From Candidatus Margulisiibacteriota bacterium (GTDB lineage Bacteria; Margulisbacteria; WOR-1; O2-12-FULL-45-9; XYB2-FULL-48-7): a DNA stretch of 64,000 nt. The translations under genes were made by a program, and so were the position numbers. Of this stretch, positions 8,068 through 50,235 are shown one piece after another; position 1 is the first letter of the stretch; the number at the start of each line of letters is the position of its first letter. The stretch spans positions 276,986 through 340,985 of the forward strand of contig JALOPZ010000001.1 of the NCBI GenBank assembly GCA_025453605.1. Reading direction: 5' to 3'. The notes below the pieces were generated by a model. It worked only from the letters and a program-made list of their open reading frames with translations. It was not told the origin of the DNA and did not search any database.

Positions 8068-8467
8068 GGGTTTTGACGGGGAGTGTGGATGCGCGAGTTG
8101 CGAGCCGAGGGTGCGACAAGCCTCGTTAAACACGGTCGCCAACGTCCTAAATGCAGACGTAAAAGAAGCACTTGCTGGCGTTCAGTGGGCCTGGACTAAT
8201 ACTTCAGTGTTCGCGGGCGCCGCAGTCGCAGCTTAACCTAGTTAAGTTGCCCGTCTCCCAGGTTCTCCGGTAAGCTTGGGTAAGACGATATATTCCGGAT
8301 CGCTCTCCGGTCTCTCCGGCCGGCCGGGGGGCTAAAAAATAGAACGGATAGCTTAGGGAACTCCTCGTTTCGGGTCAAACCTTAAGCGAACCAAATAATT
8401 GAAACTACGCTCGTAGTGGCTCTCGTTTCCATCTTTTCGGACAGGGGTTCGACTCCCCTCAGCTCCA
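8058..8467 (+). ncRNA. ssrA: transfer-messenger RNA (one-piece tmRNA)
   Basis: The 5' end GGGGCTGTAAGGGTTTTGACGGGG... pairs with the 3' end ...GGACAGGGGTTCGACTCCCCTCAGCTCCA (T-arm plus acceptor; CCA not encoded). The PK1 region GCCGAGGGTGCGACAAGCCTCGTTAAACA aligns with E. coli. The resume context CGGTC|GCC AAC matches E. coli UAGUC|GCA AAC. Confidence 0.85.
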
Positions 8468-8476
8468 TATTTTCTT

Positions 8477-20458: not shown

Positions 20459-23400
20459 TTAAGCACCGCGATTTTCCCCCGGCCGGTCAGCGACTTATCG
20501 CCCAGGCGGGCGCTGATCTCGAACGGATAGATCCCGTTCATGACCAGCTCTCCCCTCCCGTTCCGGCCGTCCCATTCTATATCGTTATATTTATCCCAAA
20601 TGTTCGCTGATTCTCCGTTCGTCGAGCCATCGAGCTCGGCCACCAGGGCGCCGGTAATACTATAAATCCTGATCTTGACGCTGTCGGCGTCGGCGCCGAG
20701 CCGGTAGCGGATCTTTGTTTTCTCCCTGTTCGGATTGAACGGGTTCGGGAAATTAGTGACCCCGGTCAGCGTCAGCTCCGGCGTGATAGTAAACGACCAG
20801 ACCTCCGACGTCGCCGCCTCATTGGTCGTCAGCGCGGTCACTTTCCAATAGTAGGTGTCGCGGTCGAGACCGGGGTCGAACTCGTGGATGGCGTAGGTGT
20901 AGTTGAAGAGAGCCAGATCAGCTTTATCGGCCGTCCCGGCGCTGGGCGCCTTGGTGAACGTCTGCGCCGCGACGGTAAAGGTGTCATTCTTGGCCACATC
21001 GAGCCGGTAAGCGGTCGTCTCGCCCTGATGATGCCGCCATTCGAAGGTGGGGCGGAGCGAAGTGACGTTCTGGCTGTTATCGGCCGGCGTGATCAACGCG
21101 GGTGATTCCAGCGAGGCCGCCTGACTAATAACTTTATCCATTCTTACTGCAGCGGTTTGCAGTCTTGATGTCGGGTTCCCGCTGACTGGGGCGAAATTAT
21201 GGGGAATCTTCTGAAAATATATGTCCTTATTCCCGCTCCGATTGTCTTCCCAAACGACCAGGCAATCTTCCTGATTCCCGTTAATGGTCAAGGATGGTTT
21301 CGCGGCCACTCCGCTCCTGGTCAATTTCACCTCCCAGGCAGAATCACCCTGCAGGCGACGGTACCACACTTCTCCGGCCCTTATATCCACAGAATGGGTA
21401 AAGGTCTTACCCTGGGTCATGGTCGTTTGACCGGGGGGGCCGTCCACTTTATCCGGCCATTTACCGGCGTTGTTCCAGTTTTTTCCTCCATCCTGGCTGA
21501 TCCTTTGGTATTGATTGTATTTACGGTCGATATAATCCACTTTTGTATATCCTGACCCCTGCCCAAATACAAACTTAACGGTAACGTCAGCATAATACCA
21601 GCCGACAGAAAGATTAACCGTATCAACCGTCTCGCCATCCCCCGTCCCGCCGGCCTTTGACCAGATTTGCGTCCCGCCTGATATGCTCATGCCATTTGAA
21701 GTGTAGATAGCGTGTCCTTCAGCATTCTCCCCATCCGCCCGGCATCTAACTGTCACCGTCTGATCATGATCGATATAGAACGGGCTGCTCGCTCCTCTAA
21801 CCGTCTGGTCTACCGACCAACCGCAGCTTGCGCTGGCATCAGCCGTGCGCACATAGCCATCGTCCGGCGCCCCTTCGGTCCAGCGAATATTTAAGTAATC
21901 CCCATCCGCCAGCACGGCGGGAGAAAACGAATCAGCACTGTTATTGGAAATGTTGATATCATCCCAGATCGCGATCGTTCTCGAGCTATCGACGCTCCTG
22001 TTCCCGGCATTGTCGCTCGCTTCGATCTCCAGGGTATAATCGCCTTCGTTGACGTAATCGCCGTAACTGTTCGTCCCGTCCCAGGAAAAAGCATAACTGC
22101 CGCCTGTCCCCAGTGGCCATTCCCTGATCACCGTCGCGCCGCGTTTGAGCCGCGCGGTGACCGACTGCAAGCCGGCCGGCGCGTCGGCGGCATTAAAGCT
22201 GATCGACGTCGTGTTGGCCGCCAAATAGGGATTGAACGACCCATTGCTAACGCTTAAATTGCCGATCGTCGGCATGGTCCGGAAAATTATCGTTTTGCTG
22301 ACCGGGTCGCTCCAGTTACCGGCGTTATCTCTGAACTGCGCGCTCACGGTTTGGCCGCCTTCGTTGTTTTTTAGTATCCAGGGCCGCGGACCGGGACTTA
22401 ACTCGCCTGACCAGCCGTCGCTATCGTTCCGGACGATCACTGCTGCTACTCCAGAGACCGGGTCATCTGCCTGTAATTTTGTCAGATCAATTGCGATAGT
22501 GTTTGTTTGTCCAGCTTCGTTATTGATCTCCAAAATGCAATTAGTCGGCTTGGTGACATCTTTCTTGATATAGAAAACCGGATCGGCCGTCTCGGTCAGG
22601 TTGCCGGCAATGTCCTGGACCTTAACATAGACCTGATTGGTCCCATCGGTACACTGGTTCGCGAAATCGATCGCCCAGGGAGCGGTGAATTGCGCTTCGC
22701 CGGTCACGATCGGAATTCCGGACCAGCCGGACCCGGTGCCGTCGGCTTTGCGGACCCGGTACTGCGCCAAAGCCAGCCTGGAGGCGTCGGCGCCGTCGTC
22801 GCGGAAGCCGACGTTATAGGTTGTCCCGCCGGCGTTCCGCCAGGCCTCGTCGCCCGTTTGGTTGTCGACCACCACCGGAGCGGTGTTGTCGACGACGACC
22901 TCGCGGGTCATTAGGTTATCTAGCGCCCGGCGACCTAAATAGTCGCGGACGTCGACCCGGAAATAATACTTGCCGTCCGGCACGTACTGGCCGGCGTCAT
23001 CCTTCCCGTTCCAGGCCGCGTAATAGTTGGCCGAGGTAACGAACTCGCCGCTCTCCACCGTCCTGACCAGCTGGCCGGCCTGATCATGGACAGTTACCGT
23101 GTAATAGCCGCCCTTTTTGCCGACCCCGTCCAGCCAGGCGATATCGTCGTCCAGCCCCATCACCTCGATCCGCTCCGGCTCCTCGTAAGACTTGGGGGTC
23201 ACCCCGAGCAAGACCTTGAACCAGTATTTGGCCGCGCCAAAAGCCGGATCTCCCGGATTGTTCTTGGGCGAAAAATAGTGCGGATTCGGGTTGGTCCCGC
23301 CGCGCACGGTCTGGTCCGGCTCCTGCACTTTCAAGGCGTTGTTCTGGATCCAGACCGTCCCGCCCCAGAGGCGCTGGGTCAAGTTACCGGCCCGGTCGCG

Positions 23401-26400
23401 GACCTCGACCAGGAAAGCGTACTTGCCCGGCGCGGCGTAATTCCCGGCGCCGACCGAGCCGTTCCAGATCACGTAACCGGCGCCCGGTTCCTTGAAAATG
23501 TTATTTTCCAGAGTGGTGATCAGATTGGCGGCCGTAAAATCGGACCGGGTATAATCGACGGCCGCCCGGGTGTTGTCCATTTTGTAAACCCTGGTGGTGA
23601 CGTAGCCTGGTTCGCTCAGGTTATACTGTAAAGTAGTCTGCAGGGCCGTTTCGGCAGCGGAAGCGTTGGTCGCAAAATGGCCGGGATTGGCGATCATCCC
23701 CGGTTCGGTCGAAATGCCGACGGTCGGCTCGACCAGGTCGATCACCAAGCTCTCCGGCGAGGAGGACAGCCTGAGCCCTTCGTTGCCGGCAAAGTCGCGG
23801 CCGGCAACCCGCACTTCCGCCGTCCCACTCCAATCGCTGCTGCTGACCGGGTAATTGTAGGAATACTCGCCCGCGGTCAGGCTGTCGTAAATTGCCGGAT
23901 TACCGTTGACCGAGACGTCGGGATTGACTTTGAGCGGCTCCGAACTCTGGAAGCGAATATTGGCTACCGCCCCTGCCTTGACAAATTTGGGCAGGCATTC
24001 AAGGCGGCTGAAGAGCGGAGCGACGGTATCGATCGTCAGCAGCTCGCCGGCCCGATAGGTCGCCGGATTATTGGCCAGATCGCTAACTTCGATGGTGATG
24101 TTCGCCAGACCGTCATTCCCGGCAAAAGCTTTGTACTGCGCGGTGCAAAGTCCGTCGGCAACCGTCCACTGGCCGGTGACCGGGATCAGTTGCGGCGCGG
24201 CGCCACTCTGCGCCACCCAAAGCCTGGGGGCCGATCGGAGCGGTTCGGAGATCTTGAATTGGATCGCGGCGGGACCGCTCACCTCGGGAGTGCTGGCCGG
24301 GTTCGGCACAACGGTCAGCTCGCTGATCGCCGGTTCGGTCTGGTCGATCGTCAGCGTTTTGGTCTTGTTGATCGGATTGAAAGCCAGATCGCGCGCCACT
24401 ACCTCAATGGTCGTTATTCCTTCGCTGTCTGCGCCGACAACCAGATATTGATAAGTGTAGTTGTCGGCTTCTTTGCTGACCAGGCTGGCCGGTCTGATAA
24501 TGCCGTTGCTCAGCAGAAAAGTGACGGACGGATCTTCCGCCACCGGCTCGGGGAAGCTCAGGTTGACAGTGACCGTGTCGCCTAATTTAGCGTAAGCGTG
24601 ACTGAGCGAGAAGTCGGTCGGTTCGGGATTGGTGTAGTCAACGTTGAAGGGGACGGCCTGCGGCACAGCCGTCGTCCCCAGCGCGTCCTGGCCGGTGATT
24701 CGGGCAAAGTAATTGCCGGCCGGGAGCGGTGTCCCGGCGTCCGTCAGTCCGTCGTAGGTGTAAACGTATGAGCCGGCCGTCTTGTTCAAGGTTTTGCTCC
24801 AGAACGCCTCGCCGGAAGCGTTCAGCACTTCCAGCTTGACCAGCCCTTCACTGGAGATGTAAAGCGTCGCGTAATTAAGTCCATAATTGAAGTCGATCGT
24901 ATCCTTGGCCCCGTCGCCGTTCGGGGAAAAGATCACCGGACCGACCGCCAGGTTAACCGCCGGTTTCGTCGAAACCAGCAGCAGTGTCCCCCGCCCCTCG
25001 CTCCCAACCCCTAATTTATCCTCCACACTGACCAAGTAGCGGTAATGACCGTCGGGCACGGCCTGCCCGCTGTCATTCTTTCCGTCCCAGTAGAACGAGT
25101 AGTTGCCCTCCCCCTGCGGGTCATTGGTCAGCAGGTGGCGAACGGTCGAGCCGGTCTCGTTCTGGATATCGAGTGACACCCGGTAATCAGGGGCGCCGCC
25201 GGACAACTGGTAAGTTATCCTGGTCAGGTCCATTAAGCCGTCGCTGTTCGGGGTAAAGGGATCCGGGCTGGCGAGCGCGGCAGTTATCTGCAGGTTTTCC
25301 AGCGGCACAACGGAAAAGCGGTCGGTGATCTGTTCTGCGCTGTTCTGCGCCCGGTCGATCGCCGAAACCTTGATGTATGTTGGCCGCTGGTACTCGGGGT
25401 TAGGCTGGCGGAAAATGGCCCAATGCTCTCCCGCTCCCTGTTCTTCGTTGTTGACCAGGACCTGGACCGGCAGGCCGTCAAGATCGTAAGCCACGGCCTC
25501 AACCGAAGCAGTTTCGGGCAGGACATATTTCAGCGCCGCCCGCCGCTCCTCATAATTGATATTGACCAGATAGGTCAGGATATTGGGCTCGACACTGTCG
25601 ACCACCACCGTATTGGTGATGTCGGCCGGTTCGCCGCCGTCCAGGTCGGTCGCGGTAATCCGAAACTCGTAAGTCCCGTCGCTGATCTTGCTCCCGTTCC
25701 GGCTGCTCTTTGGCCCGGCATAATCGGGGTCGTAACTCCCGTCCCAGGCGACCTGATGCCCCCCTTTGGTCTGGATCTCCCCTTTGATCAACCGTTTGAG
25801 CACCGCCCCGTCCTGGCCGATCACGGTGAGATCGACGCGGACATTGTCCCGGGCCAGCGCGTAACTAAGACGGGTCTGGCCGTTGCGCGGATTGGGCGGC
25901 GAAAAGGGATCGGGCTCGGCAAAAAGATACGGGACCAGCGACGGCTGGCAATCGACCAGAATAGCGGAGGTCTCAGAAGTGGCAATATTACCAGCCTGGT
26001 CTTCCGCCAGCAAATAATAATTTAAGTTCCCACCCAGCAGCTCGTAGCGGCTCCCCCGTCCATCCCACTCCCAGCTGCCGGTCACGGTGGTCTTGCCGGT
26101 CGGGTTAAGGTCCTGCAGATATTTACGGAAGCGTGTTCCGTCTCCCTGTTCGATCACGGTCGTAGCCGCTGCCGGTTCGGACAGCCGATACGAGAAGAGC
26201 GTGCGGTCTTTGGTCCCGTCATTGTTCGGCGTGAACGGATTAGGCGCGGCGGCAAAGCTTTCGATCGTCGGAGGGACGGTGTCGATGGCGACCGCCTGAG
26301 GTTCGCACGTCCCCAGGTTGCCGGCGTCATCTTCCGCGTAAACGCGCAGCTTATATTCCCCATCGGAAAGTGCCGACCCTTCCCAGGTAAAACAGCAATA

Positions 26401-29400
26401 GCCGGGTTCAAGCAACTGCCGCTTGATGATCGTCGCCGCTTCCTTGCCCTCCTTATCCTCGACCAGGATGGTGACCGGGATTTTGGCCGCGTAGTTGTCT
26501 GCCAGGTAAAAGCTGATCTCGGTATTGTCTTTCCGGCTGTCGCCGTTCGGCGAGAAGAAATTATTGGACAACTTGACGTTCTCCAGTCGCGGCGGCTGGA
26601 CGTCGACCAGCACTTCCTGGGTGGCGACCGCGGTATTGCCAGCTAGGTCGGCCGCTTTCAGTTCCAGCACATAGTGCCCCTCGATCACGTAGCTGCCGAT
26701 CTGGCCGTTCCAGTTATCCGTAAAAGCGGTCGGGGTAGTTTTGATCGGCCGATCAGTGGCCATAATAACATTGATCGGCCGGTTGTTCTTGTAGAGGGTG
26801 AGAGTCGCTTCGGCGGTCGGAGCCAGGTTGTCGGCGATCGTGTAATCGATGGTCAGGGCGTTATCAGGGCCCGAGCGGAGCGGCGAAAATGCCGGCGGCG
26901 CGCGGTCCAGATTGACCACCGGCGGGGTGCTGTCGAGCGTCAGGTCAAGGGACTGGCTTTTGACATAATCACCAAAGCTGGCAATGACCTTGAGCGTGTA
27001 CTGGCCGTCGGGCAGCGCGGCCTCGCCGCTGCCATCCCAGACTTCCTCGATCGCGCCGATGCTGCGCGTCACTTTATTGAGCAGCGTGACGGGCGTTCCG
27101 GTCCCGCTTTTCGGGAGCAATTGGATCGTCACGTCAGCCGGCTGACTTAAGTAATAATTGATCTCGAGCGGATCGGTTTTGCCCTTGACCGGCGAGAACC
27201 AGGCGCTTGAGACCCTGACGTTGGCCAGCGCCCCGCCGACATTCCAGACCAGCGGCTGGTCATGTTTGGCGTCGGCGATATACAACCGGCCTTCCCTGAG
27301 CTTGATCTTTTGCGGTTCGATCGCGTATTCTTCGGACTTGTACTCATTGATCATGTTGCCGGCGCTATCGAGCTGGACGATCCGTTGGTTGCCCGCATCC
27401 GCCACCCAGATGTTGCCAAAGGAATCGACATCGACCCCTTTGGGGGATTTAAGGACGCCTTCGCCGAATTTGGAAACAAATGAGCCATCGGAAATGAACT
27501 TTTGGATGCGATTGTTGCCGGTATCGGCAAGATATATGTCCCCGGACTTGTCGATTGCAGCCGCCGGAGAGTCGAACTGCCCATTCGCACTCCCTGGAGG
27601 ATTGGAGTGCCAAAACATCTCCTTCAGCCAGCTCCTTTCCCATGAAGCCTGCCACATATTGGGCCCGCAAGAGCCCCTATCAAATACGATCTGGTCGTTA
27701 AGCGCGTTTGAATAGAACAACGCCCGGTCAACAGTCTGTCCGTTGATCGTAAAATTCTGATTGAACGCGGCCCTTGCCTCATCCTTCAGATCGGCTTTCA
27801 AGACCGAAAATATCTCCGGGGTTCCTGCAACCGTATATTTCAACAAGCGATGCTTCTGACGATCCACCACATATAGCTTATCGCCGCTTGTTGCCACCCC
27901 CCCAGGCAAAGAGTATCCTTCCCCAAAAACCGTCTTCAGGCCGCCGCCGGCTGCACCAGAATAATCCATGTTCCTTAAACCAAGGATCCATGAATAGCTG
28001 TCAACATCCCCATAAACGATATAAGCCTCTTTCCCTTTTATCTGCCTAATAAACCTTAAGTCCCCGTCATAAATCAACACCCGGTTCGCGTAGGTGTCGG
28101 CAATATAGATCCGGTCGCCGGCAGGGGAAACTGCCAGGCCAAGGGGATACCATAAAGTTTCAACCGAGCCCGAACTGGTAGTAAATCCTTCTATCTTCCC
28201 TGTCGCCTTGCCCGCGCTGTCATATCGGACCATCTTCATTTTGTTGGTATACAAAACATACTTGTTGCCGGCATTGTCAAAAGCGATATCACCCACAACC
28301 AGGGCTTTCACTTCTTCGGGGGGAACCAGGCGGACAACGGTTGGATCGGGCGCGCTGTCAGGCGGGGCTGGTTGGCCGGGCAGATTGACTTGGACAGGAA
28401 CATTTCTGACCGTTTGATTGCCCGCCCGATCGATCGCCGTAATCTTGAAAAAGTACCAGCCGTTGGGCATAAATCCTGGTGCGCCCCAAGTAACGCTCAT
28501 TACTTCGTCTTTTTTAAGCTCTGGGTTTGTGGCTAAGTTTTCAATCTCGGCGCTACCCGTCACATCGATGATACTAACAATCGCCGAATACAAGTCTTCA
28601 TTGCTAGAAAACGACAGCAAAGCATCTGCTTCGGAAGTGACGATATATACCGTTGGATCGCTTTTAACGCTCAAATACGGCGGCGTATTGTCGATTTGAA
28701 TTGAGGTAATGCCGTCTCGGTAGGCCGTTAAACCAGTAGTGGGCTCTTTGGCTTCTACCTGATAATAATAAACGCCTTCCCCGCCGCCTCGCCATTCTCC
28801 TTCATACGTAGCACCCGTAGCAGTAAGGGTTCCCGCCGGGTTATTGTGTTCATCAAACATCTTGATCTGCCAATTCACACTTTTGTCTGCACGGGCAGAA
28901 ATCCAAGTACTATTTGTAAAACCAGGGTTATTGGGATGAACGGAGAAATAGGTATTACTTACATCTGTATAGTAAATATTTGGGACCCTAGAAGCAGACA
29001 CCGCCGCGCTTCGCACTCCACCTCCCGCCGCAGCAACGGATATATTGGAGGTGTTCGGATCAAAAAGATTTGCATAGGCCCCGTCGCTGGGAAAGTCTAC
29101 TCCGACCATGCCGACCGTAACAATTCTTTCTCTAGTATCGGGCGGATTCTGAAGATGGAAACCGGCCGCGTCGCGGTAACACGAATACACCTTTACCGTG
29201 ATACGGTAAAGCCCCTGGGAAGGGGTCCAATCCATATAATAATAATCCTTAGCGCTGAACGGCATGCTCATATAATTTGGCTGAAATGCATATACATCTT
29301 CTACTCTGGTCTGAGCAGATTGTTCCTTCCAGATATGGTTCAGGTCATCAAATTGGATGGTCTTTATTGTTTTATTTCTTGTCCCAATCAAGCCCTCTAT

Positions 29401-30081
29401 CTCAAAAACCACCTTGTAAGGGGTCGATGAATAAGAAACACCCGAGGAAGACTTAGCATCAAGGGCTTGATAGGCTTCGATCAAGACCTGCACTGGATGA
29501 TTCGGCTTCGGATAATTGGTCGGCTTGCCCCTGTCCAATATTTTGATGCATTCCGCTTGGGAGAAAGGCGCGAGATCATCAACCGCTATTGTTGCGTCGC
29601 CGTATTTTGGTTGTTCCATGCCGGCAACGACAGGGTTGACCGCTTGATTGCCGTAGATCGACGGCCCCAGACTTAAATGGAGGTGAGGCCTGGTCCCACC
29701 CGTATTGCCTGATAGTGCAACGACTTGCCCCTTACTGACCCGGCCGCTCGTTACTATGATTTGCGACAAGTGCGCATAACGATATTGAAGGGAGCGATCA
29801 TTACTTTCGACCACCAGATATTTTCCCCAACCCGGAGTATTAACATCGTGCGCTTCGGTGATCGTTCCGTCGAACAACGAGCGGATCGGGGTTCCGACCG
29901 GAACCAAGAAGTCCATTCCATCATGCCACTTATAAAAAACTGTTCGGCTTCGGTACTGGCCAAAGTTTGCGGTTATCCCTTTGTATTTATCTGTGAATGG
30001 CTTTGATACTACTTCGGCTTTCACTGCCAAGGTCAGCGCAGCAACAACCAATAGGATAAAAGTAGTCCGCCTTAATGACAT
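20455..30081 (-). CDS. giant secreted surface protein (3208 aa): M23 peptidase, NHL propeller, FlgD-Ig-like and Ig-like modules, FN3-like region, T9SS-type C-terminal domain
   Basis: Signal peptide MSLRRTTFILLVVAALTLAVKA. M23 motifs HDGMD and HLHLS. NHL repeats (ADTGNNRIQKF, ADAGNQRIVQL). Repeated F(S/T)PN(G/N)DGxKD modules. C-terminus FPNPFNPNREKTKIRYRL...IYSITGALVAEL... Confidence 0.85.
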   Translation of the reverse strand: MSLRRTTFILLVVAALTLAVKAEVVSKPFTDKYKGITANFGQYRSRTVFYKWHDGMDFLVPVGTPIRSLFDGTITEAHDVNTPGWGKYLVVESNDRSLQYRYAHLSQIIVTSGRVSKGQVVALSGNTGGTRPHLHLSLGPSIYGNQAVNPVVAGMEQPKYGDATIAVDDLAPFSQAECIKILDRGKPTNYPKPNHPVQVLIEAYQALDAKSSSGVSYSSTPYKVVFEIEGLIGTRNKTIKTIQFDDLNHIWKEQSAQTRVEDVYAFQPNYMSMPFSAKDYYYMDWTPSQGLYRITVKVYSCYRDAAGFHLQNPPDTRERIVTVGMVGVDFPSDGAYANLFDPNTSNISVAAAGGGVRSAAVSASRVPNIYYTDVSNTYFSVHPNNPGFTNSTWISARADKSVNWQIKMFDEHNNPAGTLTATGATYEGEWRGGGEGVYYYQVEAKEPTTGLTAYRDGITSIQIDNTPPYLSVKSDPTVYIVTSEADALLSFSSNEDLYSAIVSIIDVTGSAEIENLATNPELKKDEVMSVTWGAPGFMPNGWYFFKITAIDRAGNQTVRNVPVQVNLPGQPAPPDSAPDPTVVRLVPPEEVKALVVGDIAFDNAGNKYVLYTNKMKMVRYDSAGKATGKIEGFTTSSGSVETLWYPLGLAVSPAGDRIYIADTYANRVLIYDGDLRFIRQIKGKEAYIVYGDVDSYSWILGLRNMDYSGAAGGGLKTVFGEGYSLPGGVATSGDKLYVVDRQKHRLLKYTVAGTPEIFSVLKADLKDEARAAFNQNFTINGQTVDRALFYSNALNDQIVFDRGSCGPNMWQASWERSWLKEMFWHSNPPGSANGQFDSPAAAIDKSGDIYLADTGNNRIQKFISDGSFVSKFGEGVLKSPKGVDVDSFGNIWVADAGNQRIVQLDSAGNMINEYKSEEYAIEPQKIKLREGRLYIADAKHDQPLVWNVGGALANVRVSSAWFSPVKGKTDPLEINYYLSQPADVTIQLLPKSGTGTPVTLLNKVTRSIGAIEEVWDGSGEAALPDGQYTLKVIASFGDYVKSQSLDLTLDSTPPVVNLDRAPPAFSPLRSGPDNALTIDYTIADNLAPTAEATLTLYKNNRPINVIMATDRPIKTTPTAFTDNWNGQIGSYVIEGHYVLELKAADLAGNTAVATQEVLVDVQPPRLENVKLSNNFFSPNGDSRKDNTEISFYLADNYAAKIPVTILVEDKEGKEAATIIKRQLLEPGYCCFTWEGSALSDGEYKLRVYAEDDAGNLGTCEPQAVAIDTVPPTIESFAAAPNPFTPNNDGTKDRTLFSYRLSEPAAATTVIEQGDGTRFRKYLQDLNPTGKTTVTGSWEWDGRGSRYELLGGNLNYYLLAEDQAGNIATSETSAILVDCQPSLVPYLFAEPDPFSPPNPRNGQTRLSYALARDNVRVDLTVIGQDGAVLKRLIKGEIQTKGGHQVAWDGSYDPDYAGPKSSRNGSKISDGTYEFRITATDLDGGEPADITNTVVVDSVEPNILTYLVNINYEERRAALKYVLPETASVEAVAYDLDGLPVQVLVNNEEQGAGEHWAIFRQPNPEYQRPTYIKVSAIDRAQNSAEQITDRFSVVPLENLQITAALASPDPFTPNSDGLMDLTRITYQLSGGAPDYRVSLDIQNETGSTVRHLLTNDPQGEGNYSFYWDGKNDSGQAVPDGHYRYLVSVEDKLGVGSEGRGTLLLVSTKPAVNLAVGPVIFSPNGDGAKDTIDFNYGLNYATLYISSEGLVKLEVLNASGEAFWSKTLNKTAGSYVYTYDGLTDAGTPLPAGNYFARITGQDALGTTAVPQAVPFNVDYTNPEPTDFSLSHAYAKLGDTVTVNLSFPEPVAEDPSVTFLLSNGIIRPASLVSKEADNYTYQYLVVGADSEGITTIEVVARDLAFNPINKTKTLTIDQTEPAISELTVVPNPASTPEVSGPAAIQFKISEPLRSAPRLWVAQSGAAPQLIPVTGQWTVADGLCTAQYKAFAGNDGLANITIEVSDLANNPATYRAGELLTIDTVAPLFSRLECLPKFVKAGAVANIRFQSSEPLKVNPDVSVNGNPAIYDSLTAGEYSYNYPVSSSDWSGTAEVRVAGRDFAGNEGLRLSSSPESLVIDLVEPTVGISTEPGMIANPGHFATNASAAETALQTTLQYNLSEPGYVTTRVYKMDNTRAAVDYTRSDFTAANLITTLENNIFKEPGAGYVIWNGSVGAGNYAAPGKYAFLVEVRDRAGNLTQRLWGGTVWIQNNALKVQEPDQTVRGGTNPNPHYFSPKNNPGDPAFGAAKYWFKVLLGVTPKSYEEPERIEVMGLDDDIAWLDGVGKKGGYYTVTVHDQAGQLVRTVESGEFVTSANYYAAWNGKDDAGQYVPDGKYYFRVDVRDYLGRRALDNLMTREVVVDNTAPVVVDNQTGDEAWRNAGGTTYNVGFRDDGADASRLALAQYRVRKADGTGSGWSGIPIVTGEAQFTAPWAIDFANQCTDGTNQVYVKVQDIAGNLTETADPVFYIKKDVTKPTNCILEINNEAGQTNTIAIDLTKLQADDPVSGVAAVIVRNDSDGWSGELSPGPRPWILKNNEGGQTVSAQFRDNAGNWSDPVSKTIIFRTMPTIGNLSVSNGSFNPYLAANTTSISFNAADAPAGLQSVTARLKRGATVIREWPLGTGGSYAFSWDGTNSYGDYVNEGDYTLEIEASDNAGNRSVDSSRTIAIWDDINISNNSADSFSPAVLADGDYLNIRWTEGAPDDGYVRTADASASCGWSVDQTVRGASSPFYIDHDQTVTVRCRADGENAEGHAIYTSNGMSISGGTQIWSKAGGTGDGETVDTVNLSVGWYYADVTVKFVFGQGSGYTKVDYIDRKYNQYQRISQDGGKNWNNAGKWPDKVDGPPGQTTMTQGKTFTHSVDIRAGEVWYRRLQGDSAWEVKLTRSGVAAKPSLTINGNQEDCLVVWEDNRSGNKDIYFQKIPHNFAPVSGNPTSRLQTAAVRMDKVISQAASLESPALITPADNSQNVTSLRPTFEWRHHQGETTAYRLDVAKNDTFTVAAQTFTKAPSAGTADKADLALFNYTYAIHEFDPGLDRDTYYWKVTALTTNEAATSEVWSFTITPELTLTGVTNFPNPFNPNREKTKIRYRLGADADSVKIRIYSITGALVAELDGSTNGESANIWDKYNDIEWDGRNGRGELVMNGIYPFEISARLGDKSLTGRGKIAVLK

Positions 30082-44175: not shown

Positions 44176-44202
44176 GAAATTTTGCCCCGTATTTGACGAT
44201 AT
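44176..44202 (+). promoter_or_regulatory. sigma-28-type promoter motif GAAA-N15-GACGATAT
   Basis: GAAAttttgccccgtatttGACGATATattatagagaaatcATG. Nearly identical in its spacer and flanks to the copy at 50123. Confidence 0.4.
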
Positions 44203-44216
44203 ATTATAGAGAAATC

Positions 44217-46253
44217 ATGGCATTAGTCAGGCCGATCGAAAATAAGCCCCGCTGGCGGCAGTTATTCAAAACCGTCCTCGGTAATGTCATCACCTGGAAA
44301 AACCTCCTCCGCCAGCGTCCGGTAAACCACCTCGAACAAAAGATCATCAATCGGCTGGAAACGGTCGAGCACGCCCTGGTCGAGGGAAAAAGACCGACCC
44401 GGGAGCAGCTTGAGCGGCTCGAAGAAGAGCTGGTAACATACGAACAAAAACGTTCCCTGAGCCGAGCGGAAAAACAGCTGCTCGCGGAGATCAAGGCCGA
44501 GCTGACCGAACTGAAAGAGGTCCAGGCGCCCGTTGTCCCGCTGACGCCGACCGCCAACCAAGCAACCGTCGTCAACCATCCGTTCACCGGCGATCGTCCG
44601 TCGGTCGAGGTTAAACCGGCGGCCGGATTCGAAACCCGTCCTTTCCGCCTGGACAGCCTGATCCGCTTTGACCACCTGATCGGCCGGCAGATCAACCTGG
44701 AGACGCTGCTGCGCGCGCTCAATATCCGGGTTGAATTTCGGGGCAGCGATCGGATCGCCGAACTGGTCTCTCGTCTTATTCTCCGGACCATGGTCGACCG
44801 GCTGGTCCGCGAAATGGCCCGCGTCAGCGAACGCGGCGGGGAGCTGACCGAGCGGGAAATAGAATCGCTGATCCGCACGTTGAACCAGCAGTCGGCAGAG
44901 AGGCTAACGGCAGAACCGGCCAAACCGGCGCCGATCGAAAGCGAACTGACCTATGATCGGACGGAAAAGGCGATCCGCCTGGAGATCAAAGGAGCGGCCG
45001 ATCAAACGGAGGCAAAAGCGGTGCTCCGGGAACTGGCCAAGCCCGACCTGCCGTCGTTTTTGGCCGCTGCCGTTCCGCTCCTGGCCGAATTACCGGATAC
45101 CGTCGCGACGATATCCCAGGTTGTCGCCAGTCTCCCCATCAACGAGCCGGTCCTGGTCAAGTCGGTCACGCAGCTGCTGACCAAAGGCGCCGCACCAGCG
45201 GCCCGCGCGGTCGCCAGCGCCCTGGCCCAGCAATTGCCGCCGGCCGTTGCTCTCCCTCTCCTGCTGCAAACTCACGCTCAGGCGCTGACCGCCGGTAACC
45301 AGCCGGTCGCCCGCGCGGCGGAGCAAACCCTGATCGAATACGCCAGGACCACTGTCGGCCAGCAGGCGGTCGTTACCGCCTTTGTTGAGGTCAAATCCCG
45401 GCCGCTGACCACCTCGGCCATCGGCCAAAAAGCGCTCTTGGCCGCGGTGACAGCTGTCCCGACTGAAGTCCGGGCAACTGCGCCCGGCACCGCCCAGTCT
45501 ACCGTCGAGAAAGTGCTTAACCATGTGCGGGAGATCGTCAAGGCTAATCCGGCGCAACTGGCGCCGGCCGCTCTGACCGCCGAAAAAGCGATCGCGCTGA
45601 TCGAACTGGCCGTCAGGCTCGAACGGTCACCCGCCGTCATTGCCCGTCAGGAAAAAGCCGCCCCTCCCCGCCGGCGCGTCAGTTCTCTGCCGCAGCCAAA
45701 GGTCGGGATCGTCAATTCTCTGGCCCGGCGCGCCGTGAACCGGAACCCGGTCATCCAGAACCGAGTAGCTGTCGCCCAGCGCGAGCTCAAGGGGGTCATG
45801 AGGGCAGCTGAAGCGGCTAACCTGGTCCTCCCCAAGAGCGTGATCGAACACCTCTGTTCCGGCCTGGCCGGGATCAATCTCGCTCCGCTCCTGAACCAAC
45901 CGTCGGTGGGCGGGCAGTTTCAGTCACCGACAGAATCTCGTTCCGCCAGTTCGCTGCGCCACGTAGTCCGCGCTTTGGAAGCGCAGGCGGCGCGGGCGAT
46001 CAGCAGCAAGGACCCGATCGCCCTGACCCGGGTTTTTACCCTCTCCGCCCAGGTCATGCTCTACGGCATCATTATGCGGCTGGTCGGCGGCAAGCTGAGC
46101 CGGGTCGATCAGGTGATCGAACTCCTCAGACAGAAGAAGGAACTTGCCCGGATCGTCGCCAAGATCAGGCAGGGCGATATTCATGATGCCACCGAGGAGC
46201 TGTACGACGCCGTCCACGCCACGACCGCCTACTCCGAGCTGCTTGCTGCTTAA
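44217..46253 (+). CDS. hypothetical protein (678 aa), Ala/Leu/Glu/Arg-rich, helical, no signal peptide
   Basis: Long clean ORF with ATG 44217 14 nt after the promoter motif. No recognisable domain. Confidence 0.6.
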   Translation: MALVRPIENKPRWRQLFKTVLGNVITWKNLLRQRPVNHLEQKIINRLETVEHALVEGKRPTREQLERLEEELVTYEQKRSLSRAEKQLLAEIKAELTELKEVQAPVVPLTPTANQATVVNHPFTGDRPSVEVKPAAGFETRPFRLDSLIRFDHLIGRQINLETLLRALNIRVEFRGSDRIAELVSRLILRTMVDRLVREMARVSERGGELTEREIESLIRTLNQQSAERLTAEPAKPAPIESELTYDRTEKAIRLEIKGAADQTEAKAVLRELAKPDLPSFLAAAVPLLAELPDTVATISQVVASLPINEPVLVKSVTQLLTKGAAPAARAVASALAQQLPPAVALPLLLQTHAQALTAGNQPVARAAEQTLIEYARTTVGQQAVVTAFVEVKSRPLTTSAIGQKALLAAVTAVPTEVRATAPGTAQSTVEKVLNHVREIVKANPAQLAPAALTAEKAIALIELAVRLERSPAVIARQEKAAPPRRRVSSLPQPKVGIVNSLARRAVNRNPVIQNRVAVAQRELKGVMRAAEAANLVLPKSVIEHLCSGLAGINLAPLLNQPSVGGQFQSPTESRSASSLRHVVRALEAQAARAISSKDPIALTRVFTLSAQVMLYGIIMRLVGGKLSRVDQVIELLRQKKELARIVAKIRQGDIHDATEELYDAVHATTAYSELLAA

Positions 46254-46344: not shown

Positions 46345-46930
46345 TCGCTAATTTTCACGAATTTGCTGGCATCTCTAATTACACCAATAAATGAGATCGC
46401 GAATCTGCTAATTACGCAGATAATCGCGAATTTTCAAAGGAGGAGGAGCGCATGGCTGATTTGATCTATCCTGAGCTGAGTTATCGGCTGATCGGGATAC
46501 TTTACGCCGTTTATAACAGGCTTGGTGGAGGTTACCAGGAAAAGTACTACCAGCAAGCCGTGCGGCATGAGCTGCTAACTGCCGGCATCCCTTTTCTGGA
46601 ACAGGTTAAGTGCAACCTCTTTTACCAGGGTAAGCCATTAGGCCGCTACTATCTGGATTTTATCGTTGACCATACGATCGTCGTCGAGCTAAAAGCTGCG
46701 TCGTCTTTCTCAAAAAGGGACATCATGCAGGTCCTTAACTATCTGAAGCAGAGTAATCTGGAACTTGGGATTCTCGCCAGCTTTAGCCGCAACTCTATTT
46801 TCTATAAACGTATTTTAAGGGGCAGATCGCCTTATCCGGATTAGCGTATTTTTCGCGATCATTAGCGTAATTAGAGGTCATTCCCTTCGCGTAATTCGTG
46901 AGAGGACAAATTAGTGAAAATTAGTGTTGC
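46345..46930. mobile_element. low-GC ~590-bp cassette: GxxExxY gene flanked by ~90-nt imperfect inverted repeats
   Basis: The left arm (GCTAATTTTCACGAATTTG, CTCTAATTAC, GATCGCGAA) matches the reverse complement of the right arm (CACTAATTTTCACTAATTTG, CTCTAATTAC, GATCGCGAA). The AT-rich character contrasts with the flanks. Confidence 0.35.
46452..46844 (+). CDS. GxxExxY family protein (PD-(D/E)XK-like fold)
   Basis: GGGYQEKYY (GxxExxY), then DFIVDHTIVVELK core. 130 aa. Strong SD AAGGAGGAGGAG. Confidence 0.75.
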   Translation: MADLIYPELSYRLIGILYAVYNRLGGGYQEKYYQQAVRHELLTAGIPFLEQVKCNLFYQGKPLGRYYLDFIVDHTIVVELKAASSFSKRDIMQVLNYLKQSNLELGILASFSRNSIFYKRILRGRSPYPD

Positions 46931-46951
46931 ATTTAATCGGCCTCCTCAGCG

Positions 46952-46978
46952 CAAGTTTATAGCCACTTCCTCCGATAT
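46952..46978 (+). promoter_or_regulatory. sigma-28-type promoter motif CAAG-N15-TCCGATAT
   Basis: CAAGtttatagccacttccTCCGATATgtaagtGGAGGGaaaccATG. Confidence 0.4.
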
Positions 46979-46995
46979 GTAAGTGGAGGGAAACC

Positions 46996-47187
46996 ATGAG
47001 CGTTAATAAAGCTGATTCAACGATGGGAAAAGGCGGTCTCGAATTTTACCAGAAGATGGACGCCAGCGGCGCGGGTAAGGATTTTACCAGTAAGATGACC
47101 AAAGAGCTGCTGCAAACTCACGCCAACGCGCGCTACCAGCAGTCGATGGCCGCCCAGAAGAACCTGGCGAACAGTTACAAGGTGTAA
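46996..47187 (+). CDS. small hypothetical protein (63 aa)
   Basis: Has its own SD (GGAGGG) and promoter motif. Hydrophilic, helical C-terminus. No family recognised. Confidence 0.45.
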   Translation: MSVNKADSTMGKGGLEFYQKMDASGAGKDFTSKMTKELLQTHANARYQQSMAAQKNLANSYKV

Positions 47188-47206
47188 ATTTATCTTGTTC
47201 CGGATG

Positions 47207-47233
47207 CAAGTTTTCTGACCCTGGATCCGATAA
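47207..47233 (+). promoter_or_regulatory. sigma-28-type promoter motif CAAG-N15-TCCGATAA
   Basis: CAAGttttctgaccctggaTCCGATAAtatag. Confidence 0.4.
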
Positions 47234-47245
47234 TATAGATGGAAA

Positions 47246-47301
47246 CCCGGCTTGCCTGTAGTCGGGGATCTTGAACCAAGACCGAACAGGCTTGGTTTTT
47301 T
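47246..47301 (+). promoter_or_regulatory. leader element: hairpin CCCGGC[TTGCCTGTA]GTCGGG plus intrinsic terminator AACCAAG-N10-CTTGGTTTTTT
   Basis: Stems read directly (47246-47266 and 47274-47301). Located between the promoter motif and ATG 47324. Paralogous to 50162-50221. Confidence 0.5.
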
Positions 47302-47323
47302 GCTTATATAGGGGGATATTTAG

Positions 47324-50062
47324 ATGGCCGATGGACCGAAAATAGACGGATATTATAAAGGGAGCAAGCTGATCAAAAACCAGCCGCCGGCTGGTTTTGA
47401 AGGCATCGCCCATCAGTCTGACGGGAAATGCATTGATTTGGGCAAAGATAAGGCGGAAGTCAGTTGCTCAGCCAAGAGCGCTAAAGCAAGCAAAAAAGAC
47501 GCCCCCAGCAAAGCCCAGGACGCAACCGCCAAAGAGATCGTCAAAGATCTGACCGCTCTGGGCAAAAAATATAATATGCCTGTTTACGCCGTCGGTGAGA
47601 ACAGGGTCAATCTCCTGACCCAGAAAACCAAAGAGCAGATCAAGATCGTCGCCAATTATACTGTTAACAATCCGGAGCTGAACGCCGGTGTGGTCGGTTC
47701 GTTCAACGCGAAATTAACCCGGGCCTTAGAGAGCTGCGGCCACCTCGTCAACGTTGATAAAGTTCAGGCCCTGCTGGCCAAGGGCTTGACCCTGGCCGAC
47801 ATCACCAAGCTGGAAGGGAAAGAAGGCTTTGCCCTGATCGAAGCCCTGATCAACCTGCTGGCCGACAAAACGGAAGCAAAGGATTATTACACCACCGCCG
47901 GGCTGCACGAAAAACTCAGCCTGCTGCTGACCGATCCCGGCGCCGACACCGCCGAGCTCAAAGCCCTCAAGGGTCAGCTGGCCGCGGCGCTCAAGGAAGG
48001 CCCCGAAAATAAGGCCTATCAGGCGACCCTGAAAATGGCGGAAGAGACGATCGGTGTCCACGAGGCCCCGCCCCCTTCGTCCCCGGCAGTGAGCGAACCG
48101 GTTAACACCGATGTTATATCCGATCAGGTGTTAGTCGCCCGGCTGAACATCAATCTGGCCAAGGGGGTCAACGCCAGCCAGATCAGGCTCGACCAGCGGA
48201 ACAGCCGCTACAACGAGGGATTATTTGCCGCGATCGACAACCAGATGCTGGCCAACGGGACGAACGGCGACGGCGTCATCGTCATCGGCGAGCTCCGCCG
48301 GTTCTACGAGACGGTCCAATGGTTCGCCCAGCAGACCGGCCTCTCCTTTGAACAGGCGCTGGAACGCTATCAGACGGAGTCGCTGACCAACGTCAATCGG
48401 GCCGAAGTCGAAGGAGCGGTCAGCCAGCTCAAGACGATGATCGCCGCCAATCTGGGGGGCGCGCCGCTGAACAGCCTGACCTTGCCGGGGGTGCTGAAAA
48501 AATGCGGCCTGGCCGATTTCATGATCGGGTCGGTCGTCGTTCCGTTCGCCAACACCACCCGGGAGATCGACCCGGCCAAAGTGATCCAGGCGATCATGCT
48601 CCGCGTTTTCGCCGCCCGCTCGGGGAGCGCCGACCAGATCGCCCATTGGGGCCTCCCTAAAGATAAGACAATGCCTAATACCATCCCACTCGACGCCGAG
48701 CTTAACAAGAACAACATCCTCGCCTACGCCTGCGGCCAAGATATCCAGGGGGGGAAAGCGGTTGGAAGCGCCGCGTCGGGCGATCCGATCAGACAACACC
48801 AGGACGAAGATGACTTTAAGGCCATCTTCAAAGCGAGCAACAAGGGGCAAAAGAGCGACCTCGCCGACCGGTACATCAGCAAATTCATGCAAGCCGGTGA
48901 CCCGGAGAAAGCCGAATATTTCGCGCGCTACTTTGACAACCCCGCCTCGGGCTCTCACCATATTAAACAGTACCGCGGGCTCAAACGGTATGCCGGAGAA
49001 ATAGGGAAGAAATACGCGGAACAGACGGCATATCAAAAAGCCTTCGACATTTATAAAGAACTGACCGACGAACCGAAGAAATGGGGGCTACTGGCTCAAC
49101 TGGCGCAAAAGAGCGTCTCGGCCGGCAAGAGCCAGGCGGAGAGAGATATCGCGTCGGCGATCATTCAATATCTTGAAGCGAAGAGCGTTACTACCGTCCC
49201 CTGGCAAAACGCGCAGGGGGGCGAAACCGAGACGCCGCTCGGTCAGGTCAAGGCGTTGGTCACCGACCTCATCGCCAAAGACCACCGGATCGCGACCTAC
49301 GAAGCAAACCTGCTCCGCGTCGGTAACAGCGAACAGTATGGTCTGCAGAACATCGGCGAAATGATCAAGCTGCTGACCGGCCAGGAAGAGGCGGCGCGCC
49401 GGGCGGTTGTCGAGCTTAACGGGGTGATCAAGGAAACCAAAAACCCTTATGATCAAGCCTACGCCCTGTATGTGAAGGGGGCCCTCCTCTACGCGATCGC
49501 CCAGGAGCACACCCCCACCAGTCAGGTCAAGTTCGGGGAAAAAACGGTTTCCGGTCAGGCTTTGTACAAGGAGGCAATGACCGCTCTGAAGCGTTCGTGG
49601 GACATCGCTATTAACCAGCGGGACGACGCTAAATATCGGACCCTGCTCGAGCGTTCGTTCCAGACGATGATCTACATTACCGACGGGATCAAGCACGGCC
49701 GGTATCTTGCCAAGGAACAAGACAAAAAGAAGGCTGCCCAGGAGCTAGCCGGTATAATGCCCTCCTACGGAAAAGACGGGGAAAAAGATATTCAGGCCAG
49801 ATATTATGACGCCAAGGTCAAGGCTGGTCTCTCCCTTACTCCGGCCGCTTATCGTAAAACGCTCAGTGCAGAGAAGAAGGAGACGAATTACACCCCGGTG
49901 CTGGATGACGCGGTCAAGGCGGCAACTACGTTGCCAGCGGCCAAACCGACACCCAGGAGGGCAGAAGGGGACAAAGTTATAGCGAGTTCAGCCAAACCCG
50001 TTGGCGAAAAAAAGAGCAAGGGGCCAAGCGGGGAAGATGATCTGGCCAAGGCAATGAATTAA
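47324..50062 (+). CDS. hypothetical protein (912 aa), helical, no signal peptide
   Basis: Long clean ORF with SD GGGGGA 7 nt upstream. Lys/Ala-rich low-complexity termini. No recognisable catalytic motif. Confidence 0.65.
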   Translation: MADGPKIDGYYKGSKLIKNQPPAGFEGIAHQSDGKCIDLGKDKAEVSCSAKSAKASKKDAPSKAQDATAKEIVKDLTALGKKYNMPVYAVGENRVNLLTQKTKEQIKIVANYTVNNPELNAGVVGSFNAKLTRALESCGHLVNVDKVQALLAKGLTLADITKLEGKEGFALIEALINLLADKTEAKDYYTTAGLHEKLSLLLTDPGADTAELKALKGQLAAALKEGPENKAYQATLKMAEETIGVHEAPPPSSPAVSEPVNTDVISDQVLVARLNINLAKGVNASQIRLDQRNSRYNEGLFAAIDNQMLANGTNGDGVIVIGELRRFYETVQWFAQQTGLSFEQALERYQTESLTNVNRAEVEGAVSQLKTMIAANLGGAPLNSLTLPGVLKKCGLADFMIGSVVVPFANTTREIDPAKVIQAIMLRVFAARSGSADQIAHWGLPKDKTMPNTIPLDAELNKNNILAYACGQDIQGGKAVGSAASGDPIRQHQDEDDFKAIFKASNKGQKSDLADRYISKFMQAGDPEKAEYFARYFDNPASGSHHIKQYRGLKRYAGEIGKKYAEQTAYQKAFDIYKELTDEPKKWGLLAQLAQKSVSAGKSQAERDIASAIIQYLEAKSVTTVPWQNAQGGETETPLGQVKALVTDLIAKDHRIATYEANLLRVGNSEQYGLQNIGEMIKLLTGQEEAARRAVVELNGVIKETKNPYDQAYALYVKGALLYAIAQEHTPTSQVKFGEKTVSGQALYKEAMTALKRSWDIAINQRDDAKYRTLLERSFQTMIYITDGIKHGRYLAKEQDKKKAAQELAGIMPSYGKDGEKDIQARYYDAKVKAGLSLTPAAYRKTLSAEKKETNYTPVLDDAVKAATTLPAAKPTPRRAEGDKVIASSAKPVGEKKSKGPSGEDDLAKAMN

Positions 50063-50122
50063 TAGCCCCCAAGCTACCGTATTTTTGCCGTTTTTATAAC
50101 AATTATTAGCCTCTCATCCATG

Positions 50123-50149
50123 CAAGTTTTGCCCCCGTCATTTCGATAT
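50123..50149 (+). promoter_or_regulatory. sigma-28-type promoter motif CAAG-N15-TTCGATAT
   Basis: CAAGttttgcccccgtcatTTCGATATatatag. Confidence 0.4.
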
Positions 50150-50161
50150 ATATAGTGAAGC

Positions 50162-50221
50162 GGAATTACGGTTGCCTGTACCGGAATTCGGCGTATGAAC
50201 CCACTTAACAGGTGGGTTTTT
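50162..50221 (+). promoter_or_regulatory. leader element: hairpin GGAATTACGG[TTGCCTGTA]CCGGAATTC plus intrinsic terminator AACCCAC-N7-GTGGGTTTTT
   Basis: Stems read directly (50162-50189 and 50198-50221). Located between the promoter motif and ATG 50236. Confidence 0.5.
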
Positions 50222-50235
50222 GTTTAAGGAACAAA

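Follow-up and report, generated by a model that had tools for sequence, protein, structure and literature searches.

The genome of a Candidatus Margulisiibacteriota bacterium contains two adjacent genes for orphan proteins of 912 and 2948 amino acids (aa), and in front of each lie a short hairpin and an intrinsic terminator, placed between the promoter and the start codon. Why is a terminator positioned where it would stop the transcription of the gene that follows? We investigated these two leaders in a stretch of 64,000 nucleotides (nt; contig JALOPZ010000001.1, positions 276,986–340,985, forward strand), which is called the window and to whose first letter all positions refer, and in related loci, which are cited by L numbers. 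Comparative sequence data indicate that the leader is a genuine and conserved RNA motif that had not been described before. Judged by its layout and predicted folds, it is very probably an attenuator, and a switch based on pairing between the hairpin loop and a box in the terminator is plausible.

Structure of the two leaders

Both copies consist, in this order, of a sigma-28-like promoter, a 5′ hairpin (P1), an intrinsic terminator, a Shine-Dalgarno (SD) sequence and an ATG. The features are as follows.

47241–47301, + strand: leader copy 1, from the predicted transcription start site (TSS) to the U-tract
47204–47233, + strand: copy 1 promoter, ATGCAAGTTT (47204–47213), 14 nt and CGATA (47228–47232), with the predicted TSS at G 47241
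47242–47271, + strand: copy 1 P1 hairpin, outer GGA/UCU pairs and the core CCCGGC(U)/(A)GUCGGG (47246–47266)
47252–47260, + strand: copy 1 P1 loop, TTGCCTGTA in DNA and UUGCCUGUA in RNA, with the invariant GCCUGU at 47254–47259
47274–47301, + strand: copy 1 terminator, AACCAAG (47274–47280), 10 nt (47281–47290), CTTGGTT (47291–47297) and T6 (47296–47301)
47285–47291, + strand: copy 1 AACAGGC box, reaching from the terminator loop into the 3′ arm
47310–47326, + strand: copy 1 translation start, SD AGGGGGA (47310–47316) and ATG at 47324 of the 912-aa orphan gene (47324–50062)
50157–50224, + strand: leader copy 2
50120–50149, + strand: copy 2 promoter, ATGCAAGTTT (50120–50129), 14 nt and CGATA (50144–50148), with the predicted TSS at G 50157
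50160–50193, + strand: copy 2 P1 hairpin, inner stem CGGU/ACCG and outer GAAU/AUUC and GC/GC pairs
50172–50180, + strand: copy 2 P1 loop, TTGCCTGTA (RNA UUGCCUGUA), with GCCUGU at 50174–50179
50197–50221, + strand: copy 2 terminator, arms GAACCCACTT/AGGTGGGTTT (50197–50219; RNA GAACCCACUU/AGGUGGGUUU) and T5 (50217–50221)
50207–50213, + strand: copy 2 box, the wobble variant AACAGGU
50226–59082, + strand: copy 2 SD AAGGA and the 2948-aa orphan gene, with ATG at 50236

A preliminary description of this DNA, made from the letters alone, had reported the hairpin, loop, terminator, T6, SD and ATG of copy 1, and all of them were found in their places. The same order upstream of the 2948-aa gene was likewise recovered, with the loop at 50172–50180 and the terminator at 50197–50219. 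In copy 1 the core stem (CCCGGC, 47246–47251; GTCGGG, 47261–47266) comprises 6 bp including one G-U pair. The 9-nt loop of that description is present, but its size requires adjustment, as RNAfold closes one further U-A pair in both copies and leaves 7 nt. Across the 64 kb, exact matches to the 9-mer TTGCCTGTA occurred at the two leaders only. The RNAs from the TSS to the U-tract folded into two hairpins each, with z-scores of −3.8 (copy 1) and −3.65 (copy 2), and none of 200 shuffled sequences was as stable. The terminator stems have 7–8 bp followed by U6 in copy 1 and 10 bp followed by U5 in copy 2, and both qualify as intrinsic terminators. The distance between the U-tract and the ATG is 22 nt in copy 1 and 14 nt in copy 2. 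As no promoter fits into these 14–22 nt, read-through of the terminator is obligatory for expression of the large genes. The terminator sits between the sole available promoter and the start codon, which is the layout of an attenuation leader.

Distribution of the leader

A scan of one genome per species with a pattern for the promoter and the loop gave 29 matches. Four of these had the complete architecture, and all four came from metagenome-assembled genomes (MAGs) of candidate division WOR-1/Saganbacteria or Margulisiibacteriota. The other 25 were located within coding DNA of unrelated taxa, lacked the hairpin and were regarded as chance matches (approximately 18 expected); among them was a match from Vampirovibrionales (L025; 16 bits, no P1 stem, no box). 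With a slightly relaxed pattern, a scan of metagenomes gave 52 loci, of which approximately 44 were genuine and approximately 8 were judged to be chance. The covariance-model search that the preliminary description had called for was carried out with a model trained on 18 simple examples. The two window copies scored 57.6 and 56.5 bits, with no other match inside the window, and the model retrieved the leaders found by pattern together with 7 more copies, some of which have a variant −35 element or a variant loop.

Because the search patterns fixed the loop, a sample independent of them was needed, and we used the contigs of 10 homologues of the 912-aa protein obtained by an exhaustive HMMER search. 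The leader was found before all eight of the genes for proteins of about 1000 aa for which upstream DNA was available and before 8 of the 10 adjacent giant genes; the two giants without a leader directly abut the preceding gene. Altogether, homologues do exist: approximately 70 leaders were collected outside the window, 16 of them through protein homology alone, and their sources are Saganbacteria/WOR-1 and Margulisiibacteriota MAGs and metagenomes. On the recurrence of motif and gene order alone, the window organism would probably belong to, or stand near, the Saganbacteria/Margulisiibacteriota.

The architecture is well maintained in this collection. The intrinsic terminator lies 20–60 nt downstream of the loop hairpin, with 3–40 nt between the P1 stem and the terminator. 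A hairpin adjoins a T-run of at least 4 in approximately 59 of 71 leaders, and the U-tract is 5–25 nt from the SD in more than 50. Six leaders contain tandem GCCUGU hairpins. In L047 the second hairpin masks the SD rather than ending in a U-run.

Covariation of P1 and the terminator

The preliminary description had let the hairpin stand or fall with covariation. In the covariance-model alignment of 55 leaders, 81% of the cells were paired, compared with 60% after shuffling and 28–54% in controls with slid partners, although this alignment was fitted to the model and is hence biased toward structure. Compensatory changes were found at 16–17 of the 17 pairs of P1 and the terminator, that is, over both helices, and none of 500 shuffles equaled the covariation score. 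A symmetric ungapped register for P1 had given 55–80% pairing only, because the loop length varies between 7 and 11 nt, and was replaced by the covariance-model alignment. The P1 stems visibly differ in every locus, and the loop is constant. Since the stems covary and differ while the loop stays constant, these comparisons indicate that P1 and the terminator are real RNA structures.

Complementarity of the loop and the terminator

The loop sequence GCCUGU has its exact complement in the terminator region, an ACAGGC box that extends over parts of the terminator loop and arm in approximately 60 leaders. This relation went unnoticed in the preliminary description, which recorded the box merely as a conserved AACAGG. 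The box was left unconstrained by the search patterns; it occurred in 50 of the 57 promoter-linked leaders and in each of the 16 leaders found independently of the patterns. Within the five-pair core of the loop-box helix, 222 of 222 aligned cells were complementary. The variants of the box were ACAGGU (six loci), ACGGGC, GCAGGC, AUAGGC and AUGGGC, which represent exactly the four transitions that preserve G-U pairs. The two G residues of the box that face the CC of the loop were unchanged throughout, and the sole pair-breaking change was ACAGGG in L035. Such one-sided, wobble-keeping changes in the aligned sequences are moderate evidence for loop-box pairing. An A-rich stretch lies directly 5′ of the box, with A at position −1 in 44 of 50 leaders.

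Box and terminator helix share nucleotides in nearly every leader. In approximately 40 of them the terminator loop passes into the 3′ arm within the box, whose last 1–4 nt belong to the stem; in 7 the box extends over the beginning of the 5′ arm, at the terminator's base; and in approximately 8 it pairs locally with a second GCYUGU in an enlarged terminator. The box is missing from four or five leaders. Of these, L051 (two copies), L057 and L073 have the U-run directly behind the GCCUGU hairpin, and in the boxless leader of L054 the U-run lies approximately 10 nt downstream of this hairpin.

We calculated the effect on the predicted fold of barring the six box nucleotides from pairing. The mean energy of the terminator region changed from −13.6 to −7.9 kcal/mol, a mean loss of 5.7 kcal/mol, and 48 of the 59 leaders lost 3 kcal/mol or more. 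In regards to the window, the predicted values changed from −9.9 to −5.4 kcal/mol for copy 1 and from −9.7 to −3.5 kcal/mol for copy 2. The computed energy of the loop-box duplex is approximately −11.6 kcal/mol.

Related sequences were also observed elsewhere. A small hairpin, (U)CGAG-CYUGU-CGAG(A), is present inside the leader terminators of L058, L079, L080, L081, L086 and L091; its loop GCYUGU could pair with the box as well, and a related UCGAGCGNAGUCGAG follows the terminators of L090 and L094. Right after the 2948-aa gene, a terminator at 59088–59118 (+ strand) has an 11-bp GC stem and a 9-nt loop, AAAACAGGC, that displays the box. The homologous terminator at the cluster end in L096 (approximately 22552–22582) reads GGGGGCGGCGG-UUAACAGGC-CCGUCGCCCCC-U5 and carries compensatory changes in its stem, and in L054 a 565-aa gene is followed by a third terminator whose loop displays the box (2337–2365). 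The remaining terminators of the window lack the box. A box hairpin suspected inside the giant gene at approximately 53.73 kb was dropped, as the predicted fold gave no support. Within coding sequences (CDS), GAACAGGCC(U/C)CCCCGC was found at L017 4112, L027 4338 (− strand), L075 5148 (− strand), L037 1687, L039 3051, L042 1145 and L069 1592 (− strand). It lies 118–352 nt past the start in the six genes with an identified start (that of the L027 gene was not located) and encodes (G/R)EQA(S/P)P, with synonymous codons that are nearly identical between two protein subfamilies. It could reflect a motif of the protein or, alternatively, an ACAGGC box inside the gene.

Promoter

The sequence CAAGTTT-N10–14-CGATA occurred three times in the window, all inside 3.2 kb, versus 0.01 occurrences expected. 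We gathered 71 promoters from the window and the related loci with a search pattern in which CGATA and most of AAGTTT were fixed. The gap between AAGTTT and CGATA was 14 nt in 69 of the 71, and the flanking ATGC was conserved too. The preliminary description had missed the likeness of this promoter to sigma-28 promoters, and by this likeness we assign it provisionally to the sigma-28 rather than the sigma-70 type. The sigma-28 consensus has the −10 element GCCGATAA at −15 to −8 and a −35 element of the TCTAAAG type (PMC12784957). The −10 element found here, (C)CGATA(A/T), resembles GCCGATAA, the −35 element GCAAGTTT resembles TAAAGTTT and TCTAAAG, and the spacing is rigid, as in FliA/SigD promoters. 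There are also differences: the spacer is 1 nt longer than that of the fliC promoter (PMC12784957), the −35 element starts with GCAA instead of TAAA, and the regulon observed comprises orphan giants along with a kinase-like and a HExxH protein. By analogy with sigma-28, we infer that transcription starts at the conserved G eight bases past CGATAW (47241 and 50157), which would place the P1 hairpin at the extreme 5′ end of the RNA. Neither flagellar genes nor fliA were seen in the window, nor did they figure in the top families of neighboring genes in the related loci, and motility, pili and sigma factors are not mentioned in the genome paper on Saganbacteria/Margulisbacteria (PMC6349859).

Promoter and leader also occur apart. 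L093 carries a leader (3652–3739) without the sigma-28-like promoter, and the two are therefore separable. Leaderless copies of the promoter drive the 63-aa open reading frame (ORF) family, the kinase-like protein and the HExxH protein. Two promoters of the window have no leader.

46952–47187, + strand: leaderless promoter copy (CAAGTTT...CGATA, 46952–46977) and the 63-aa ORF (46996–47187)
44177–46253, + strand: variant promoter AAATTT-N14-CGATA (44177–44201), ATG at 44217 and the 678-aa orphan gene, the first gene of a conserved four-gene cluster

At the 678-aa gene (44177–44219), few bases and no SD lie between the predicted TSS and the ATG, which would make the mRNA nearly leaderless; L084, L010 and L097 share this AAATTT-type arrangement. 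The leaderless promoter in L078 precedes a Ser/Thr-kinase-like protein with an HGDIKPEN motif (5862–6716, − strand), and that in L083 precedes a protein with the HExxH metalloprotease motif (3536–4396, − strand); neither protein has an evident N-terminal signal peptide. The regulon looks effector-like. Tandem promoters 80–130 nt apart before one leader were observed at L019 2674, L053 8624, L078 964, L079 3614 (− strand) and L080 3770, with short ATTCG/ATTAG repeats between the two promoters in L053 and L078.

Genes downstream of the leaders and their neighborhood

Nearly all genes downstream of the leaders encode proteins of between 400 and more than 4000 aa, in which Pfam domains are almost absent and no N-terminal signal peptide is evident. 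Among 40 downstream proteins, only sporadic EF-hand or TPR matches were obtained, and no single metabolic or transport pathway was represented. Pfam and NCBIfam matched no family in the four cluster proteins of the window. The exhaustive HMMER search gave 19 representatives of the 912-aa protein family among 1.84 billion proteins, and word-indexed searches with the 912-, 2948- and 686-aa proteins returned only the query itself or nothing. The gene order common to the window and related contigs is an orphan gene of approximately 680 aa, an ORF of 63–66 aa, a protein of approximately 1000 aa and a giant of 1831–4525 aa. The giant in L092 (3064 onward, 4525 aa) has precomputed DEAD/SecA_DEAD helicase-type Pfam matches, the sole enzymatic hint among the giants.

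The 63-aa ORF (46996–47187) is conserved in the same place in L081, L084 and L086, with 18–67% identity. The identity of its product as a FlgM-like (anti-sigma-28) protein was considered and dropped, as a lenient Pfam scan of four homologues gave no match. The co-located 63-aa protein, which has no recognizable fold or family, is a candidate partner of the system, with a conjectural role as a regulator or an anti-sigma-like factor. No conserved neighboring regulator was found among 121 neighboring proteins of the related loci, which were housekeeping proteins only, such as those of an arginine operon. Several genomes have small genes of the GxxExxY/PDDEXK_3 or 23S_rRNA_IVP type inserted immediately before the leader promoters (window 46452–46844; L010 2652–3194; L090 1105–1485 and 2401–2775; L094/L097 3080–3493); the insertion in the window parts the 678-aa gene from the 63-aa ORF, unlike the arrangement in L084. 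Elsewhere in the window, a transfer-messenger RNA (tmRNA) gene is located at 8058–8470 (+ strand, 154 bits), and a separate ORF of 3207 aa without a leader (20458–30081, − strand) directly follows another gene.

Comparison with known regulatory RNAs

At the gathering threshold, Rfam 15 matched only the tmRNA in the whole window. With E values up to 10, three chance matches within CDS were obtained in the region 46800–50400, and twenty related loci gave no matches. The preliminary description, which did not recognize the leader as a known riboswitch class, agrees with this result, as no Rfam family matched, and searching the literature for the sequences of loop and box gave nothing relevant. 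The motif is new, and its general type, that of a leader attenuator, is a known one.

The LoaP-dependent dfn leader of Bacillus velezensis has a hairpin and a NusA-dependent terminator before a long operon (PMC12691694). By analogy of layout, it is the closest functional analogue: both have a small hairpin in the 5′ leader, an intrinsic terminator and a very long unit that can be expressed only by read-through. In contrast to the dfn system, no NusG paralogue gene adjoins the leader here, no similarity between the loop and the dfn hairpin is reported, and the promoter is sigma-28-like. No complementarity between loop and terminator has been reported for the dfn leader, unlike the leader described here.

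The RNA substrates of ANTAR proteins (NasR on nasF, EutV, AmiR) consist of two tandem hexaloop hairpins, the second of which competes with the terminator. Like our leader, they have a promoter-proximal hairpin, a loop that is read by a protein, a role that would fall to a putative factor here, and control of a factor-independent terminator downstream. The present leader does not fit this class in that it has one hairpin (rarely two), a loop of 7–11 nt with GCCUGU, and a P1 stem that does not overlap the terminator. PreQ1-I and SAM-II are small riboswitches built on an H-type pseudoknot, in which a hairpin loop pairs, as is proposed here, with a downstream strand after an A-rich sequence and this strand is shared with the expression platform. 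They differ in that the leaders here have no covariance-model match, precede non-metabolic genes, carry the strand inside the terminator loop and include boxless variants. In guanidine-II (mini-ykkC) riboswitches, which have two ACGR loops, and in the antisense kissing-loop attenuation of pT181 and pIP501, two mutually recognizing hairpin loops decide, as would be the case here, on expression or termination. Here, however, the complements GCCUGU and ACAGGC are heterologous and lie in one transcript, no antisense RNA is involved, and the second hairpin is the terminator.

Proposed mechanism and alternative explanations

We propose the following model. A sigma-28-type promoter would start the transcript a few nucleotides before P1. 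The GCCUGU loop would pair with the ACAGGC box, as an H-type pseudoknot or a kissing complex, and this pairing would take away part of the terminator helix and favor read-through, in the manner of an antiterminator. Whether the pseudoknot forms is probably up to a trans-acting factor, a protein or RNA by which the GCCUGU loop is read; such a reader is likely because the loop is conserved beyond the needs of pairing, occurs without the box and occurs in tandem. In the version that we prefer, a repressor would mask the loop and the terminator would form. In leaders whose P1 is itself the terminator, the repressor would stabilize P1 directly, and a loop-masking repressor would provide one logic for all leader variants. 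The opposite regulatory sign, or an activator of the LoaP or NasR type, may also be compatible with the data. Premature termination would yield RNAs of approximately 60–66 nt. On balance, we consider the whole of this model, in which loop-box pairing weakens the terminator of an attenuator leader and a trans factor sets the balance, to be somewhat probable.

Several points weigh against it. No pair of the loop-box helix changed on both sides, and shuffles gave the same value of 222/222; because both strands are nearly invariant, the covariation test is silent either way for this helix. Most loops were fixed by the search patterns, and only approximately 25 leaders were found with the loop unconstrained. 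In the commonest layout the box takes just the uppermost 1–4 bp of the terminator, which could thus persist alongside a kissing complex or even be stabilized by it, and the data therefore leave either sign of regulation. No candidate trans factor was found among the neighbors, which are housekeeping genes and the 63-aa protein. The regulatory mechanism and the conditional read-through are deduced from sequence and predicted folds.

The leader might instead be a stand-alone small RNA (sRNA) gene of approximately 60–66 nt, present in several copies per genome, whose loop acts in trans as a protein sponge or by pairing with ACAGGC sites, and the downstream gene would be expressed by leaky read-through. 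RsmY and RsmZ are examples of RNAs that sponge a protein. A 5′ hairpin followed by a rho-independent terminator with a U-tail is the canonical layout of an sRNA, the loop is found in tandem in six leaders, and the ACAGGC-loop terminators outside the leaders are possible trans targets. Moreover, L010 (5929–5994, − strand) and L097 (approximately 430–500, + strand) contain a full promoter, P1 and box-terminator followed by a separate AAATTT-N14-CGATA promoter, so that these modules look autonomous. However, with the U-tract 5–25 nt from the SD in more than 50 leaders and no other promoter, the module is necessarily the 5′ untranslated region of a large gene, and it is bound to one gene class rather than to intergenic regions at large. 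We therefore regard an sRNA gene as rather unlikely, and this reading would be compatible with the attenuator model.

Factor-dependent processive antitermination of the LoaP, NasR or lambda N type was also considered, in which a protein bound to P1 would ride with RNA polymerase past the leader and past later terminators inside the genes of 3–13 kb. The order of a small essential hairpin, an intrinsic terminator and a very long operon is the same as in the dfn leader (PMC12691694), the target genes are exceptionally long, and the loop is invariant, as for a protein-binding site. Against this, no NusG paralogue, NusG/KOW protein or other candidate was found by the Pfam scan of the genes at 39979–63989 around the window cluster (6 upstream, 4 downstream) or in the 25 most frequent families of the 121 neighbors, and the wobble-tolerant complementarity of loop and terminator box would be left unexplained. 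This mechanism is unlikely in our estimation.

More doubtful still is an extension of the pairing model, in which the GCCUGU loops and ACAGGC boxes would form a cis RNA-RNA addressing system specific to the gene cluster, with the 5′ hairpin of the nascent giant mRNA recognizing every terminator whose loop displays the box, the leader terminators as well as those at the 3′ end of the cluster at 59088–59118 and in L096 at approximately 22552–22582. If true, it would amount to protein-free, RNA-guided and terminator-specific antitermination, or to 5′–3′ circularization of mRNAs of 9–13 kb via a kissing complex.

A small-molecule riboswitch on an H-type pseudoknot like that of preQ1-I or SAM-II, whose ligand would stabilize the loop-box helix and control the terminator, could account for the invariant nucleotides, which are expected of ligand pockets, for the A-rich stretch 5′ of the box (A at −1 in 44 of 50 leaders) and for the overlap of the 3′ pseudoknot strand with the expression platform. 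It is very unlikely given the giant orphan proteins without a metabolic or transport signature, the four to five boxless leaders, the six with tandem hairpins and the lack of an Rfam match even at E = 10. Finally, it is hardly credible that the hairpin and terminator do no more than end the preceding gene, with a promoter farther downstream as the preliminary description had allowed and with copies that are alike by local duplication or chance: each leader terminator of the window is indeed the first one past the preceding gene (the 63-aa ORF for copy 1, the 912-aa gene for copy 2), but this reading is already contradicted by the comparative data, in which the order of promoter, hairpin, terminator and SD is kept with covarying stems in approximately 70 leaders of divergent genomes, holds where the upstream gene is divergent (L034, L045, L053 and L065) and always has the promoter upstream of the terminator, and only 22 and 14 nt separate the U-tract from the ATG in the window.

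Significance

Saganbacteria and Margulisbacteria are uncultured sisters of Cyanobacteria, and the attenuator leader would be the first cis-regulatory RNA described for these lineages. It defines a regulon in which a sigma-28-like promoter and the leader precede a conserved cluster of fast-evolving giant proteins. As a motif of approximately 60 nt with approximately 70 natural variants and a logic of loop, box and terminator, it is a good system for the study of loop-loop or pseudoknot control of intrinsic termination. It also provides a handle for finding the trans factor and for learning when the giant genes are expressed.

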